From contig NC_043003.1 in the NCBI RefSeq assembly GCF_006345805.1, positions 74,214,001-74,278,000 of the forward strand: a stretch of DNA of 64,000 nucleotides, written 5' to 3'. This DNA comes from Octopus sinensis. Its lineage: Eukaryota. Position 1 is the first letter of the stretch; the number at the start of each line of letters is the position of its first letter. The translations under genes were made by a program, and so were the position numbers. The notes under the pieces were generated by a model. It was not told the DNA's origin. It worked only from the letters and a program-made list of their open reading frames with translations, and searched no databases. Shown here in pieces: positions 11,821-45,533 of this stretch.

Positions 11821-12870
<1,050 letters not shown>

Positions 12871-24052: not shown

Positions 24053-27000
24053 TACGTTTGACTTTTGCTTTATATTTGTACAAGTTGGCTCCAAGTCTCA
24101 CCCAGAGACCTCAAGAGACAACAGGGTTGAAAGTTCATGTTGTTGTTATGCCTAGTGTGCCATATATTTGGGGGGGGGGTTGTACTAATGAATGCCTAAA
24201 AAAAAAAAAAAAATTTTTTTGTTTTAAACCTTGAGATTACATAGAAAGTATTTTGCGTAGGATATGAGCAGTTCCCATGAGCACTATCTTTTGAATTTCT
24301 GCCATTTTTGGGTTTCCTGGTATCTGAGTTAGGTAGCTATCTGCCCCTTTTGCTATCATTCCCAGGGCACCTATGACAACAGGTATTGTTTTAGTCTTCA
24401 GCTTCCACATTTTGCTGATTTCTATTTCAAGATCTTTATATTTGCTCAGTTTTTGGTAGGTCTTGACAGATACGTTTATATCGATTGGGACAGTCATATC
24501 AATGAGGAGGCATGTTTTTGTTTGAAGTCTTTCAATATGATGTCTGGCCTATTTGCATCTATCTTTCTGTCAGTTTGAATGGCGAAGTTCCAGAGGAGTG
24601 AGATGTGGTCATTTTCAAGCACTGGGGGTGGTTTGTGTTCCCACCAGTTTTTTTCATGGGGCAAATCCAGGTTTTTACAGATTACCCAGTGAATATATTG
24701 TGCAGCTCTATCGTGCCTGTTGAGATATTCTGTAGGCGCTAGAAGACTGCACTTGGAGACCACATGGTCAATGGTTTCATTTTGTTGCTTGCATACACGA
24801 CATGTTGGACTGCTTCTGATCTTTAATATGTTGGCCTGGTAGTTTCTTGTTGGTAGGCATTGATCTTGAGCTGCTATGATAAACCCCTCTGTTTCCGATT
24901 TTAAGCCAGAGGCCATTAGCCATTGATGGGTCAGGGTTTTGTCAACATCTGCATTATTTGCTCTCGTTGGGTATTTGCCATAGAGACGTTTTTCTTGCCA
25001 TTTATCATTCAGAATATCTAAGGCCGCAGATTTAGCACGGGTTTTCATGCGCTTAGCTTTTTCTGTGCCTGTTTCTTGTATGTCTATCTCTAATTCCGAA
25101 ATTGGTTGTATTCGGAATTCACTTAGGTATTCCTTTGCCTGTTTTGTTACTGAGTATGATGCTTTCTTGTTTTCATGTTTTGAGACAAGTTTTAACATCC
25201 AGTCCTCAGAGTTTTTCAGGTAGGTGTCTAGGCCAATTGTAGCAATCTTCATTGTTATTGCCAGTTGTAAAAGTCCACGGCTTCCCTCTTTTCTTGGCAG
25301 ATAAAGTCGTTCTGTATCTGCCTTAGGGTGGTGCATTCTATGCATTGTCAACAGTTTTCGTATTTTTCTGTCAAGATTACATATTTCAGTAATTGACCAG
25401 TTAACGATACTGAAACTGTAAGTCACGACTGGTATGGCTAATGCATTGATCGCTTCGATCCTGTTTCTCGCATTCAGCTCTGTCTTGAGTATTGCTCTTA
25501 CTCTGCGATAGCATTCTCTCCTGATCCTTTCCTTCATCTCTGAATGCCTTATTCCTCCTCCTTCAATTAACCTTAAATACTTGTAGTTCTCTGCTGGGTC
25601 TAATCCTTTTATGACATTCTGCTGGTCAAGGTTAACGTTAGATGTTTCTGTCATTTTTCCTTTGATAAAGGTAGCTTTTGCGCATTTATCGAGGCCAAAT
25701 TGCATTATGATGTCATCACTGAATTGTTTGACAATCGCTAGTAAGCCCTTGAGTTGCTGGTCATTTTTTGCAAAGAGCTTTAAATCATCCATGTAAATGA
25801 GATGATTTATATTTTTATCAAACATTTTATATCCGTACTGCGCATCATTGAGCAGTTTTGAGAGAGGTATTAAGGCTAAACAGAAGAGGAGCGGTGATAG
25901 TGAGTCACCCTGGAAAATGCCACATGAAATTTTTACATCACCAGCATTTAGAGATTCATTGTCACTGTTCAAAGTTAGTGTGGTTCTCCATGATCTCATA
26001 CTTACAGACAAAAAGTTTCGCAGAGCAGGTGCTATCTTATACATTTCTAGGCATTTATTAATCCAGCTATGTAGTAGGCTATCAAAAGCCTTTTTATAGT
26101 CTATCCAGGCTATTGATAAGTTTTTGTGTCGTTTGTGACAATCTTCTAAGATCATCTTATTGATGAGTAGTTGATCTTTACAACCGTAGGATCCACGTTT
26201 ACATCCATTCTGTTCATTAGGGAATATGCTGCTGTCTGTCAAAAAACTATAGGTATATTCCGTCAGGACAGATGTTAGTGTTTTATACATAGTTGTTAAG
26301 CAGGTTATGGGTCTATAGTTTTTGGGTTCATTTGTTTCTTCACTTTTTGGAAGCAGGAATGTTAACCCATTAACTAGCCAAGGAGGCATCCTACTAGGGT
26401 GTTGCAAAACATCATTGTACAGTTCTGCTAGCAGTTCATGGCTCTCTGGGAAGGCATTCAACCAAACGTTAGGGATTTTATCCTTTCCTGGAGACTTCCA
26501 TTTGCTTGACCTCCTGAGAGCAGATCTTATATCTTCTACCTTGACACCCTCCCACTTTTGCTCTTCTAAGGAGTCCAGTTCTTTAGATATTCTGTCAATC
26601 CAGGGGGCCTTTTCGCTGTGTGTTTTTTCTTCTGCCCAAATTTTATTCCCAAATCCCTGCACTTCTTCTTTTGATGGTACAGACTTTACAGTAACTGTTG
26701 TTTTTCCTATCTCCCTGTAAAAATGTTTGGGGTTATTTTTGAACATGTTGTTGTCCCTGTAGAATCTAATACGCTTTTCATACCTCGCTATGCGGGCAGC
26801 TTTAGCAGATACCTTTTGCTAGATGGTTTCTATGGTGGCATCAATATCAAGTATAGTTTTCATATTATATTTTTTCATTAGTTTTTGGGTTTTTGCAGGT
26901 TTGGTAGTCTTATGAACCTTAAGGTTTTTCAAATATTCAATGTCAGATCTAAATAGTTTAATTTGTTGTTGCAAACGCTCTTGCCAAGAAGGCTTTCTGT

Positions 27001-28110
27001 GGAAATGTTGCCGTTTTCTAATCTTTTCACCACATAGGATCGTTGAGATTTTCGCGGATGCATAGTATAGGTGGTTGAGATCTGTGATATCAACATCATT
27101 AGCTGAAATTATATCCTTAAGTGCAAGCCGGATTTTACCAATTATTTTCATGTTTTGGTTAGATTTGCGTATTTTAGGGAGTGTATCACGTTCATCCATA
27201 CTGGTTTCTTTAATTTTCATCCATTCAATCATGATTTGACTTTTTAGCTCATGTAGTTCTGTCGGGTCAATATTTGTGTGACTTTCTTCATATATTTGAT
27301 GTTCATCTGTCTTAGTGTTTATATTTGGTTCAGGGAGTATTTCACATTGCCTATCACTTATACTAACTCTTTCAATCCTTACTTCGTTTGTATTAGCTCT
27401 GAGCTGGTCTATAATTATTTCCTCTGTATTATCTTCTTTAGCTGCAGCTTCGTTCATTTTATCCGTTACTGCTTGTTTAAATTGATCAATCTCTACTTCA
27501 GTCAGTAATTTTTTTTTTATAATGTTTCTTCTGACGTTGACAAGTTTGTTACTGTCTATGTAGGGTCTTACTTCAGGGTGTTTCTGTCTCCAGTTTATGT
27601 AGGTTTGTATAGTGTTCGATTTATCTGTGGGGAAATATATGGCATGATAGAAGGCTGCAAGAACTTCTTTATTATCTTCCCTAGTCCATTTTTCCTTCTT
27701 TTTCTTTTGAGTGTGTGGTGACGAGCATGGATGGCCATCTGTTGGAATATTCCAGTTGCGGGGTACGTCCAGCTCCTGTGTGTCGGGAAAATTTGATCCA
27801 GTAGCTGATATTTCAATCAGACTTTGGTTCAATTTTCGGGTACGTGGTCTTTTGTAATCCGCGCAATGACCAATGCGGTTTATTGTTTGATTTGTTGACC
27901 TTGAAGCATGACGAGCTTCGACTCTTACATTAAGAGACGGATCTGTCAGTTTAGGATTTTCTGCACGTAAACATTGTTCGTAGCGTAGTTTCCTAAGGCT
28001 AGCAGATCTGTATTCGTCTGTATTTTTTTTGTTGATAGTTTTATCTCCGGGCATAGTTTTCCCTTCTTTTTATTTATTTATTCATTTATTTCTTTAAACT
28101 TATGAAAGGT
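24052..28110 (-). mobile_element. Near full-length R4/Dong-clade non-LTR retrotransposon inserted at (TAA)n
   Basis: Single-ORF RT plus restriction-like endonuclease architecture. A 185-bp 3' UTR ends exactly at the TTA array 24008-24051. The 5' boundary is approximate. Confidence 0.96.
24237..28054 (-). pseudogene. R4/Dong polyprotein of ~1270 aa (Myb-like N-terminus, RT, CCHC, PD..D endonuclease) with two disablements
   Basis: ORFs 26819-28054 and 24494-26746 are in frame and separated by one TAG at 26819-26821. A 1-nt loss near 24515 breaks QKTCLLIDMTVP. Motifs: KWTREDN, YRPITCL, IDYKKAFDS, GIFQGDSLSP, YMDD, CRVC..ETIDHVVSKC, RHD, RPDI..ID, K..KY. Confidence 0.95.
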
Positions 28111-41565: not shown

Positions 41566-41571
<6 letters not shown>

Positions 41572-41993
41572 CAAAATAAGCAACAAGAATAACTTTGGTA
41601 ATTTGGTACGATCGTTTCGCACTACATCATTTTATTAAAAGTTGTAAGCATTACAACAGTTTTAAAATGCTGAGCACTCATTTTTTTTTGTCCATTCTTC
41701 GCAGAACCTTCTAGTAGTTCAGAACAACTGAATATTAGTCAGTCAGTTGATAAACTCCACTACCTTAAATGTTCTTAAAATTTAAATCCACATCTTTGTC
41801 TATATATCTACCTTCTATGTAAGGTTATCACTTGATATGGATATTACGTATTAATGGAAAACCTCTATTAATGACTGATGAGTGCTCAGCATTTTAAAAT
41901 TGTTGTAGTGCTTACAACATTTAATAAAATGATGTAGTGCGAAACGATCGTACCAAATTACCAAAGTTATTCTTGTTGCTTATTTTGATTATA
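41566..41993. repeat. 116-bp inverted repeat starting at a TA tract
   Basis: 41566-41681 versus 41878-41993, with a few mismatches and a 196-bp spacer. Confidence 0.95.
41869..41960 (+). ncRNA. Type-I hammerhead motif with long stem II
   Basis: CUGAUGA 41875-41881; 59-nt stem II (GUGCU/AGUGC, CAUUUUA/UAAAAUG, UGUUGUA/UACAACA); GAAAC-GAUC-GUA 41941-41952; stem I imperfect. Confidence 0.78.
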
Positions 41994-42095
41994 ATCACCA
42001 CATGGATTTATATGGATAACACCATTCAAAATTCTGGTGCATCTAACTAAAGTACCATATTCATTTGAATCTAAATTTTGCTGAACTTATATGTG

Positions 42096-43282: not shown

Positions 43283-43334
<52 letters not shown>

Positions 43335-43483
43335 AATATAAGAGAGTGGTCACTATATGGCTCACTCTAGCACCAGTTAATCCAAAAGGTTTCAACCACG
43401 AAAATACATGTTTCCCATGAAAGTCAGTACGATTGTTAGCTCACACGGACAGGGCAAATAAAAAATAACAAAAATACAGATTA

Positions 43484-43566
43484 TTTTGGGACAATTGTTT
43501 CGCTATTAATGAATTAAATGTAATTTTACTTACAAAAAAAATCCATTTGTAGCTCGTCAGCCAAAA
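43484..43566 (-). ncRNA. Type-I hammerhead ribozyme (minus-strand copy)
   Basis: Exact reverse complement of 44563-44645. Confidence 0.9.
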
Positions 43567-44562
43567 CTATCTGGATGAAATCCACTCAATCACACGCCAG
43601 ATTTTACCATAACGATAAATACGCGTGTGGTTCAATTGATTACATCCGACGTTATAATTCAAATGCCCCAACTAACAGCGCGCCAAACTTTCACGGAAAA
43701 CAAATACAGCATTTAGAAATAAATGCAGCATAATTATAATTAATTAATAAGGGTGAGAGAATTAGATACTAATTTAATAGTATATCTATTCAACACCAAG
43801 TGGCCTAGTGCTCCGAGAAACCTGGATTATTATAATATTTTATAACATATTATAATATTTTTACAAAATAAATATAAGAGAGTGGTCACTATATGGCTCA
43901 CTCTAGCACCAGTTAATCCAAAAGGTTTCAACCACGAAAATACATGTTTCCCATGAAAGTCAGTACGATTGTTAGCTCACACGGACAGGGCAAATAAAAA
44001 ATAACAAAAATACAGATTATTTTGGGACAATTGTTTCGCTATTAATGAATTAAATGTAATTAAGTAAAATTACATTTAATTCATTAATAGCGAAACAATT
44101 GTCCCAAAATAATCTGTATTTTTGTTATTTTTTATTTGCCCTGTCCGTGTGAGCTAACAATCGTACTGACTTTCATGGGAAACATGTATTTTCGTGGTTG
44201 AAACCTTTTGGATTAACTGGTGCTAGAGTGAGCCATATAGTGACCACTCTCTTATATTTATTTTGTAAAAATATTATAATATGTTATAAAATATTATAAT
44301 AATCCAGGTTTCTCGGAGCACTAGGCCACTTGGTGTTGAATAGATATACTATTAAATTAGTATCTAATTCTCTCACCCTTATTAATTAATTATAATTATG
44401 CTGCATTTATTTCTAAATGCTGTATTTGTTTTCCGTGAAAGTTTGGCGCGCTGTTAGTTGGGGCATTTGAATTATAACGTCGGATGTAATCAATTGAACC
44501 ACACGCGTATTTATCGTTATGGTAAAATCTGGCGTGTGATTGAGTGGATTTCATCCAGATAG

Positions 44563-44645
44563 TTTTGGCTGACGAGCTACAAATGGATTTTTTTTGTAAG
44601 TAAAATTACATTTAATTCATTAATAGCGAAACAATTGTCCCAAAA
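44563..44645 (+). ncRNA. Type-I hammerhead ribozyme with canonical core, extended stem II and palindromic loop 3
   Basis: Stem I UUUUGG/CCAAAA; CUGACGA 44569-44575; stem II GCUA...UAGC 44576-44627; GAAAC 44628-44632; AAUU; GUC 44637-44639 (predicted cleavage after 44639). Confidence 0.92.
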
Positions 44646-44920
44646 TAATCTGTATTTTTGTTATTTTTTATTTGCCCTGTCCGTGTGAGCTAACAATCGT
44701 ACTGACTTTCATGGGAAACATGTATTTTCGTGGTTGAAACCTTTTGGATTAACTGGTGCTAGAGTGAGCCATATAGTGACCACTCTCTTATATTTATTTT
44801 GTAAAAATATTATAATATGTTATAAAATATTATAATAATCCAGGTTCTCGGAGCACTAGGCCACTTGGTGTTGAATAGATATACTATTAAATTAGTATCT
44901 AATTCTCTCACCCTTATTAA

Positions 44921-45000
<80 letters not shown>

Positions 45001-45193
45001 CTATATATGAAGGATACCCATAAACAAGTGTTACTGTTTATGTAGTTCAGGCTTCCACCGCTAGCGATTTCAGTGCAGTCGCACTTTGTTTTGTATTGCT
45101 TCTCCCCTTTTCGTCGACTGGCATGATCAACACACATGCTTACATGTGGTTTACGGTTCCTTTTGGGTACCCATATATATATATATATTTTTT

Positions 45194-45533
45194 CTTTGAC
45201 CCCCTTCGGTCAGACACTGACCATGGGTTTGCACCTAGAGAGTTACCCTCTGAGGCACAAGTCTGGGCAAGGTTGTTTTATGGAAGACCAGCAGTCGCCC
45301 ATGCATACCGGTCTTCCCTCTCCACGTCACCGATGTTGTCCAAGGGAAAGGCAAAGGGGCCGATACAGCTTGGCACCTGTGACGTCGCAACTCATTTCTA
45401 CAGCTGAGTGAACTGGAGCAACGTGAAATAAAGTGTCTTGCTCAAGAACACAACACGCAGCCCGGTCCGGGATTCGAGCTCACAACCTCACGATCGTAAG
45501 CTCGACGCACTAACCACTGAGCCACGCGCCTTC
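45194..45533 (-). mobile_element. tRNA-derived SINE, family B
   Basis: Minus-strand head ggcgcgtggctcagtggttag (A box) ...gagctcgaatccc (B box), then ttcttgagcaagacact body; flanked by TA runs. Confidence 0.9.

Follow-up and report, generated by a model that had tools for sequence, protein, structure and literature searches.

The 64,000-nucleotide stretch of Octopus sinensis DNA analysed here (the window) carries a hammerhead ribozyme motif with a stem II of 52 nt. The architecture is real, recurrent and missed by the published descriptor for such ribozymes, and the element that carries it is itself of a known kind. The motif lies in a non-coding 536-bp tandem repeat, and the reading that we favour, and hold to be probable with some reservation, is that it cuts as a dimer only and that its 52-nt stem II consists of an ordinary helix II of 3-4 bp with a hairpin of ~40 nt added to it.

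A complete type I hammerhead core, with CUGANGA, GAAA and NUH elements and helices I-III and open at helix I, is found at 44569-44639 on the forward strand, and an identical full hammerhead lies at 43490-43560 on the reverse strand, inside the inverted arm of the same insertion; a scan of the window with stem filters returned no passing motif besides these two. In the forward copy the catalytic box CUGACGA (44569-44575) is followed by the 52-nt stem II (44576-44627), which folding and alignment resolve into a basal helix GCUA/UAGC (44576-79/44624-27), a 2x2 internal loop CA/AA (44580-81/44622-23), a middle helix (44582-89/44614-21) and an apical hairpin UGUAA-GUAAAA-UUACA (44595-44610). The GAAA box (44628-31), the palindrome and C17 then occupy 44628-44639, the palindromic stem III AC-AAUU-GU, that is ACAAUUGU, being at 44631-38. 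Site-specific self-cleavage is predicted after C44639, between 44639 and 44640. Stem I is formed by 44556-44568 and 44640-44652 as 7 bp, an A-A mismatch and 5 bp, is supported by covariation, extends beyond the 44563-44645 stretch originally delimited, and holds a conserved U1.7 at 44646 in its 3' strand; the position names 1.7, 10.1, 15.1 and C17 follow what we take to be the standard hammerhead numbering. Immediately 3' of stem I is a conserved U-rich element (44653-44680) that is weakly common to autonomous Hydra-type PLEs.

The three helices of stem II constitute both the minimum-energy and the centroid fold (-11.8 kcal/mol, z -3.5, with 1 of 200 shuffles as good), and the whole motif folds at z -4.7 (0/200 shuffles as good). 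The first-pass annotation had described this stem, its three helices and the AC-AAUU-GU palindrome, and all are present where it placed them, with the fold confirmed. That the motif is not a chance occurrence follows from a genome search for the core with 35-65 nt spacing and ACAAUUGU, which gave 5,030 matches against 14 for a reversed-pattern control. When a 221-base stretch was compared with the Rfam model RF00163, 44563-44645 was matched end to end (E 7.5e-6), with 40 nt of the arm aligned as an insertion in loop II. A scan of the whole window against Rfam gave no hammerhead among 150 of 154 matches listed, nearly all of which are microsatellite look-alikes.

It had been proposed from the window alone that a long stem II is recurrent and that length-restricted searches would miss it, and both proposals are borne out genome-wide. 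The pattern CTGANGA-N-GAAAC-NNNN-GTH, applied without a folding filter, restricted to forms with a 4-nt loop III and able to count one site in two bins, gave 18,977 matches for N of 6-35 (control 1,470, leaving ~17,500), 38,637 for 36-65 (control 1,708) and 13,240 for 66-95 (control 1,235); ~49,000 matches above control thus have N of 36-95, and ~74% of all above-control matches are at 36 nt or more. The published min-HHR descriptor, as set out in PMC4209133, admits a stem II of 3-7 bp with a loop of 3-10 nt, ~24 nt at most, and the window copy scores 30.1 bits against RF00163, below the gathering score of 34. Length-limited searches therefore miss long-stem-II hammerheads, and Rfam under-scores the window copy. 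Surveys that count hammerheads in animal genomes depend on descriptors and Rfam models with an upper limit on stem II, and with about three-quarters of the above-control matches at 36 nt or more, they may undercount badly in some invertebrates; the giant squid annotation lists 235 hammerhead_1 loci, in a different genome and by a different method (PMC6962438).

The further proposal that long-stem-II motifs form a discrete class does not hold, since stem II lengths grade into one another and vary even within a lineage. In 29 loci chosen to span stem II lengths, one lineage whose 3' flanks are 80-90% alike has stems II of 14, 16, 19, 37-39 and 68 nt and is linked less firmly to a form of 94 nt, so that lengths range from 14 to 94 nt among related elements; another has 60, 69, 75 and 83 nt, the longer forms having arisen by AT-rich duplications at the tip. 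Tandem repeat families with arms of 25, 44, 45 and 75 nt all amplify, so a long arm is not needed for a tandem-repeat lifestyle. Other tandem hammerhead repeats were seen at loci L297, L299, L300, L301 and L208 (units ~400-600 bp, stem II 25-76 nt), and a family with a very stable 85-nt stem II (-38 kcal/mol) at L303 and around position 1000 of L302.

The repeat at the window is a non-coding tandem repeat with one type I hammerhead per unit, a unit from cut site to cut site being 536 nt (44104-44639, forward strand). The insertion consists of two head-to-head arms with (TA)n on the flanks. The forward arm (44061-44934) holds 1.6 units, is broken at its 5' end inside stem II and runs to a long, tailed 3' end followed by (TA)n, and the inverted arm (43319-44061, reverse strand, 743 bp) is 100% complementary to 44068-44810 and runs to a short 3' end, again followed by (TA)n. 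This locus is probably not a source copy, because only one core is complete in the forward arm and the two arms together make an inverted repeat of 743 bp. A search of the 2.72-Gb genome gave 1,225 candidates; 44 matches from the 40 scored are ~100% identical, many of them in tandem, and the 536-bp family is very young. Older subfamilies, with flanks ~60% alike, share its organisation. At locus L286, 15 GAAACAATTGT sites follow one another at intervals of ~533 bp or double that length.

The 3' ends of the family cluster around two unit positions, 44810 and 44934. Of the 18 head-to-head insertions that were fully seen, 17 combine a short 3' end with a tailed one, and a non-autonomous PLE is recognised by such features: partial tandems, an inverted arm truncated at its 5' end, and a tail at a single end. 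Since the tail of an Anolis PLE is the stretch between two RT start sites (Frangieh et al., PMC11167929), the two 3' ends can be read as RT starts, which would lie ~170 and ~295 nt downstream of the cut. A role for the stem II hairpin in priming, suggested earlier, is unlikely, because both insertion ends lie at these distances downstream of the cut. Small hairpins at 44768-44790 and 44880-44902, just before each 3' end, are kept across subfamilies and are candidate RT start signals. A tblastn search with four PLE proteins found no match in 36 family loci. In its anatomy, the element looks like a non-LTR retrozyme of PLE origin.

Twenty sequencing runs from eight studies hold the repeat; none is on record as RNA, and they therefore give no evidence on expression. 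Contigs from these runs contain the joint between the end of one unit and the start of the next, which fits tandem DNA equally well. In the contigs of four runs the differences within 44643-44812 are mostly A-to-G (17/27, 7/14, 6/9 and 8/8 places), all of them lying downstream of the cut site and none upstream, and A is the base at nearly every one of the 16 such sites checked in young genomic copies. The pattern resembles A-to-I editing of sense transcripts, in runs that lack an RNA record and whose source may be other individuals or species.

Conservation of the arm was examined in an alignment of representatives from 22 of 28 clusters, six being left out: four that were near-duplicates or junction copies from the young family, a deleted copy, and a motif unrelated to the rest; pairing was assessed by counting pairs, by shuffling, against slid controls and by parsimony on a tree. 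Across the 22 subfamily representatives 89.6% of cells pair, as against 33-42% in slid controls, and covariation over the whole motif exceeds all 500 shuffles, which ignore kinship. The extension alone is 89.1% paired, with a double change in 5 of 14 pairs and a score that 2 of 500 shuffles reached, kinship again being ignored. Counted by parsimony, double changes number eight in stem I, five in basal stem II and two in the middle helix, the apical helix having none, and within the extension 23 one-sided changes that keep the pair stand against 23 that break it, 15 of the latter at the tips. A second clade (15 representatives) gives a similar picture, its apical helix being 87.9% paired with double changes in 2 of 8 pairs. 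Helices I and II thus covary, as in a type I hammerhead, and the extension does so weakly: its pairing is retained, mostly through G-U exchange, with modest covariation. Conservation of sequence, above all at the tip, is more evident there than covariation.

The palindromic stem III fits dimer cleavage, a view supported by folding predictions and by comparison among motifs. In the predicted monomer the two pairs of stem III form at a probability of ~1e-4 and the core misfolds, with GAC pairing to GUC; a duplex between two ACAAUUGU palindromes is predicted at -6.4 kcal/mol. Among 29 motifs that were not chosen by loop sequence, 20 have an exactly palindromic loop III, as against 1 in 16 by chance, and the loop III palindromes switch in concert between families. 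Dimer action is already known for PLE hammerheads, as described in PMC4209133. Strong self-pairing is predicted for the monomer that runs from cut to cut (z -6.8, 0/100 shuffles).

Natural hammerheads are described as sharing one common tertiary pair, an A-U Hoogsteen pair between the A that ends loop II and a U beside position 1.6 (PMC2553840, PMC11875169). A44623 is present in 22/22 rows and U1.7 in 21/22, and the base opposite U1.7 varies (A10, G7, T5). Because A44623 and U1.7 match the conserved pair, we infer that the canonical contact is intact and that loop II has had a hairpin, the additional 40 nt, grafted onto it; the placement of the arm as a loop II insertion by the RF00163 alignment is in line with this. 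Against it, A and U are easily conserved in AT-rich DNA, U1.7 is less fixed in the other clade (11/15), and the apical hairpin is more constrained than a mere spacer requires.

According to the reading that we favour, two ACAAUUGU palindromes in tandem transcripts would pair and the RNA would be cut into 536-nt units, which would be circularised or kept as multimers. Arrays much longer than one unit, as at L286, imply that the template must be circular or multimeric. A PLE RT/GIY-YIG protein, most likely of Hydra type, would copy the units into (TA)n, beginning at the two putative start sites downstream of the cut. Within the ribozyme, A44623 and U1.7 would retain the usual contact between loop II and stem I, and with it standard catalysis, the loop of helix II having been opened into a 2x2 internal loop that bears the extra hairpin. 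The added hairpin would have arisen through AT-rich growth and would have to remain folded, holding the two core boxes together, and its conserved tip in the window's lineage may since have taken on binding as a secondary function. Against this reading, trans-acting hammerheads can be inhibited when stem II is extended by a segment with internal loops (PMC11875169), and for the Anolis Poseidon element hammerhead cleavage is dispensable for insertion in vitro (PMC11167929). The weak covariation of the extension, mapped 5' ends that show no pile-up at the cut site, and a search for an autonomous partner that identified none also count against it. A very young, non-coding 536-nt family with two putative RT start sites offers a compact test bed for the purpose of PLE hammerheads and for circles as templates.

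The constraint on the tip invites a different account, which we regard as doubtful, in which the apical hairpin with its loop GUANNA serves as a binding handle, for the PLE protein or for some host factor, in folding, packaging or mobilisation in trans; RT recognition, as put forward in the first-pass annotation, is of this kind. In the window's lineage the GUANNA hairpin would then be a sequence-specific handle that gates cleavage or selects RNA for the RT, the long arm being the form of most hammerheads in the genome, and it would give a non-catalytic module in PLE hammerheads its first concrete role. The apical 16 nt change by 0.875 steps per column as against a flank median of 1.75 (13 representatives), with 11 of 252 overlapping flank windows as slow. 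A family search anchored on the flanks, and making no demand for AGTA, gave 2,009 matches (control 0), AGTA being present, by eye, in 98 of 100 matches listed; these ~2,009 family matches are in the length range of 30-60 nt, as against only four at 4-33 nt. An Anolis PLE hammerhead, moreover, cuts only with protein present (PMC11167929). However, deletions are rare per copy and length retention alone is little proof, the tip sequence differs among families that bear related Hydra-type ORFs, non-coding tandem families with a 25-nt stem II exist in the same genome, and the minimal Anolis template begins 20 nt downstream of the ORF start, beyond the first core box, and reaches far downstream (PMC11167929). 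It is still less probable that the arm, and perhaps the ribozyme too, are passengers, the hairpin being neutral growth and cleavage irrelevant to spread. The continuum of stem II lengths, the insertion in vitro of cleavage-dead Anolis RNA (PMC11167929), the remark of Craig et al. (PMC8557442) that hammerheads may be no more than parasites of PLEs and the 61 mapped 5' ends, which show no pile-up at the cut site (3/61 at 44643-48), all favour it, but they are set against a core identity of 0.90-0.93 compared with 0.57-0.66 in most flank stretches (13 representatives), the recurrence of double changes both in stem I and in basal stem II, and the concerted switching of loop III palindromes between families.

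Dimer stabilisation, one of the functions initially offered for the long arm, and docking of the apical loop on stem I as a pseudoknot are very improbable. Loop II pseudoknots are described as common in hammerheads (PMC3088659), and weak pairing is possible between the A-rich loop and the U-rich stretch past stem I (-2 to -4.6 kcal/mol), but the loop lacks self-complementarity, its distance of ~17 bp from the core is more than the usual contact could span, and neither a common register nor covariation was seen in 13 representatives; the pseudoknot was rejected for want of a consistent pairing register. Hardly more credible is an RNA-processing signal hidden in the arm, either a 5' splice donor (GUAAGU/GUGAGU at the tip, in the window's family) or a poly(A) hexamer (AAUAAA/AUUAAA, in other families). 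A donor-like motif is retained in most subfamilies, and an intron of Drosophila Penelope is reported to end at its hammerhead (PMC4209133), but the GU is lost in several subfamilies (AUGAGU, GCAAGU, AUAAGU) and the contigs of four runs hold no joint at the donor, although contigs cannot show absence; the splice donor was rejected on these two grounds. As to the hexamer, AWUAAA occurs ~23-26 nt before the cut in 14 of 15 other-clade representatives and is followed by a GU-rich stretch, but the window's family has no AWUAAA in stem II and such hexamers are frequent in AT-rich DNA. In the alignment of the other families (A2, e.g. L039:1471-1591), AAUAAA/AUUAAA in the 3' strand of stem II together with the GU-rich stretch has the layout of a poly(A) signal, which the window's family (family A) lacks.

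Grafting of a hairpin on loop II, with dimer cleavage, remains the reading that we prefer, and it calls for a PLE that supplies the protein. Among 152 matches to a PLE RT, 20 loci were chosen for long frames. Nineteen of these 20 Hydra-type loci carry a hammerhead with a 47-60 nt stem II on the same strand as the ORF, and their proteins have, by eye, RWK/RWA, DKT and CxCX5C before a C-terminal nuclease-like region, motifs given as marks of the Hydra clade by Craig et al. (PMC8557442). Pfam gave no match in the two Hydra-type proteins tested, and one Hydra-type protein aligns to a Pfam-positive RT at E 1e-7. Loci L141-L160 (e.g. L150:2146-4671 and L143:2498-5338) comprise several Hydra-type PLE families with frames of ~700-1,100 codons and near-identical copies; the elements are longer than the described Hydra elements of <3 kb, by way of Asn-rich inserts, and have 3' UTRs of ~1-1.7 kb. 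The window's family gave weak matches only to the pLTRs of Hydra-type elements, at the 3' half of the ribozyme (best E 0.003), and no autonomous partner of the 536-bp repeat was identified among the candidate PLE families compared. A young PLE of DKG type with a 781-aa protein was considered as the driver and rejected, a relaxed scan finding no hammerhead of its own in nine loci; family A copies near this PLE look like separate insertions. The DKG-type PLE (L112:1374-5074, and L111-L127) has a 781-codon frame with RVT_1 and GIY-YIG and an overlapping upstream frame of up to 479 codons.

The repeat resembles the non-LTR retrozymes, as these are described in PMC7229834 and by Li et al. (2026, bioRxiv 10.64898/2026.07.22.740005), in being a non-coding tandem repeat with one type I hammerhead per unit, a weak palindromic helix III, a self-paired monomer and co-occurrence with PLEs. 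It differs from them in its unit of 536 bp, as against ~300 bp for the typical retrozyme described by Cervera and de la Pena (2020, PMC7229834), in its 52-nt stem II, and in the head-to-head arms and two-end tail that tie it to PLE-type insertion; circles are an inference here. With the PLE hammerheads described by Cervera and de la Pena (2014, PMC4209133) it shares the CUGANGA/GAAA core, a palindromic helix III, predicted dimer action and U-rich flanks. The helix II lengths given there reach 7-8 bp at most, far below the 52 nt of the window, which also makes the initial premise that minimal PLE hammerheads have a short stem II only half right, since their helix II is described as larger than usual. 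Strict min-HHRs in that account have no loop III, whereas the window motif has one of 4 nt, and the window motif further differs from the hammerheads described there in its defined stem I extension and its tertiary-contact signature.

Hydra-clade PLEs, in the data of Craig et al. (2021, PMC8557442, File S2), likewise insert at (TA)n, as partial tandems that include inverted copies and bear a tail on one end, but their hammerheads have ~12-25 nt between the boxes, as against 47-60 nt here, and their tails are 30-40 nt long, as against ~95-125 nt here. Two spike-moss elements in that file, PLE-X1_sMoe and PLE-X1_sTam, marked there as deviating, have a stem II of ~50 nt like that of the window motif. 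The long stem II of PLEs thus has a small published precedent, these two elements being tabulated there without a genome-wide prevalence; literature searches, largely outside subscription journals, found no paper describing the long-stem-II architecture. The idea that the eight Naiad 'half-core' cases of Craig et al. are long-stem-II hammerheads was not borne out in the one record read by eye, Naiad_Ovul, which has GAAA upstream of CUGAUGA.

A second hammerhead motif, at 41875-41952 on the forward strand, belongs to another family and lies in a head-to-head insertion of its own (~41566-42090). The first-pass annotation gave it the same design as the motif at 44569-44639 and called the two unrelated in sequence. 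The design is shared as far as a 59-nt stem II (z -2.1, 5/200 shuffles) and the palindrome ACGAUCGU are concerned, but the first pair of stem I is lost: the motif has GA where 30 of 34 motifs from 30 overlapping family loci have GG. With a stem I of only 3 bp in this family, the loss of that pair makes the motif probably a decayed copy. The lack of relationship holds roughly, in that the family A model does not detect the motif, with a borderline similarity to family A (P ~0.03-0.04). The family of this second motif has 1,476 genome candidates, and at locus L065 a copy precedes a Hydra-type ORF fragment.

Elsewhere in the window, LINE-like frames occupy 24494-28069 on the reverse strand: a frame of 774 codons (24494-26818) has RVT_1 and zf-RVT, and an adjacent frame of 416 codons has no Pfam match. 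The 2.3-kb RT frame at 24494-26818 looks like a LINE. A second zf-RVT match lies at 12281-12808, and a GC-richer stretch between microsatellites at 45190-45530 has, on the impression gained from reading it, a SINE-type look.
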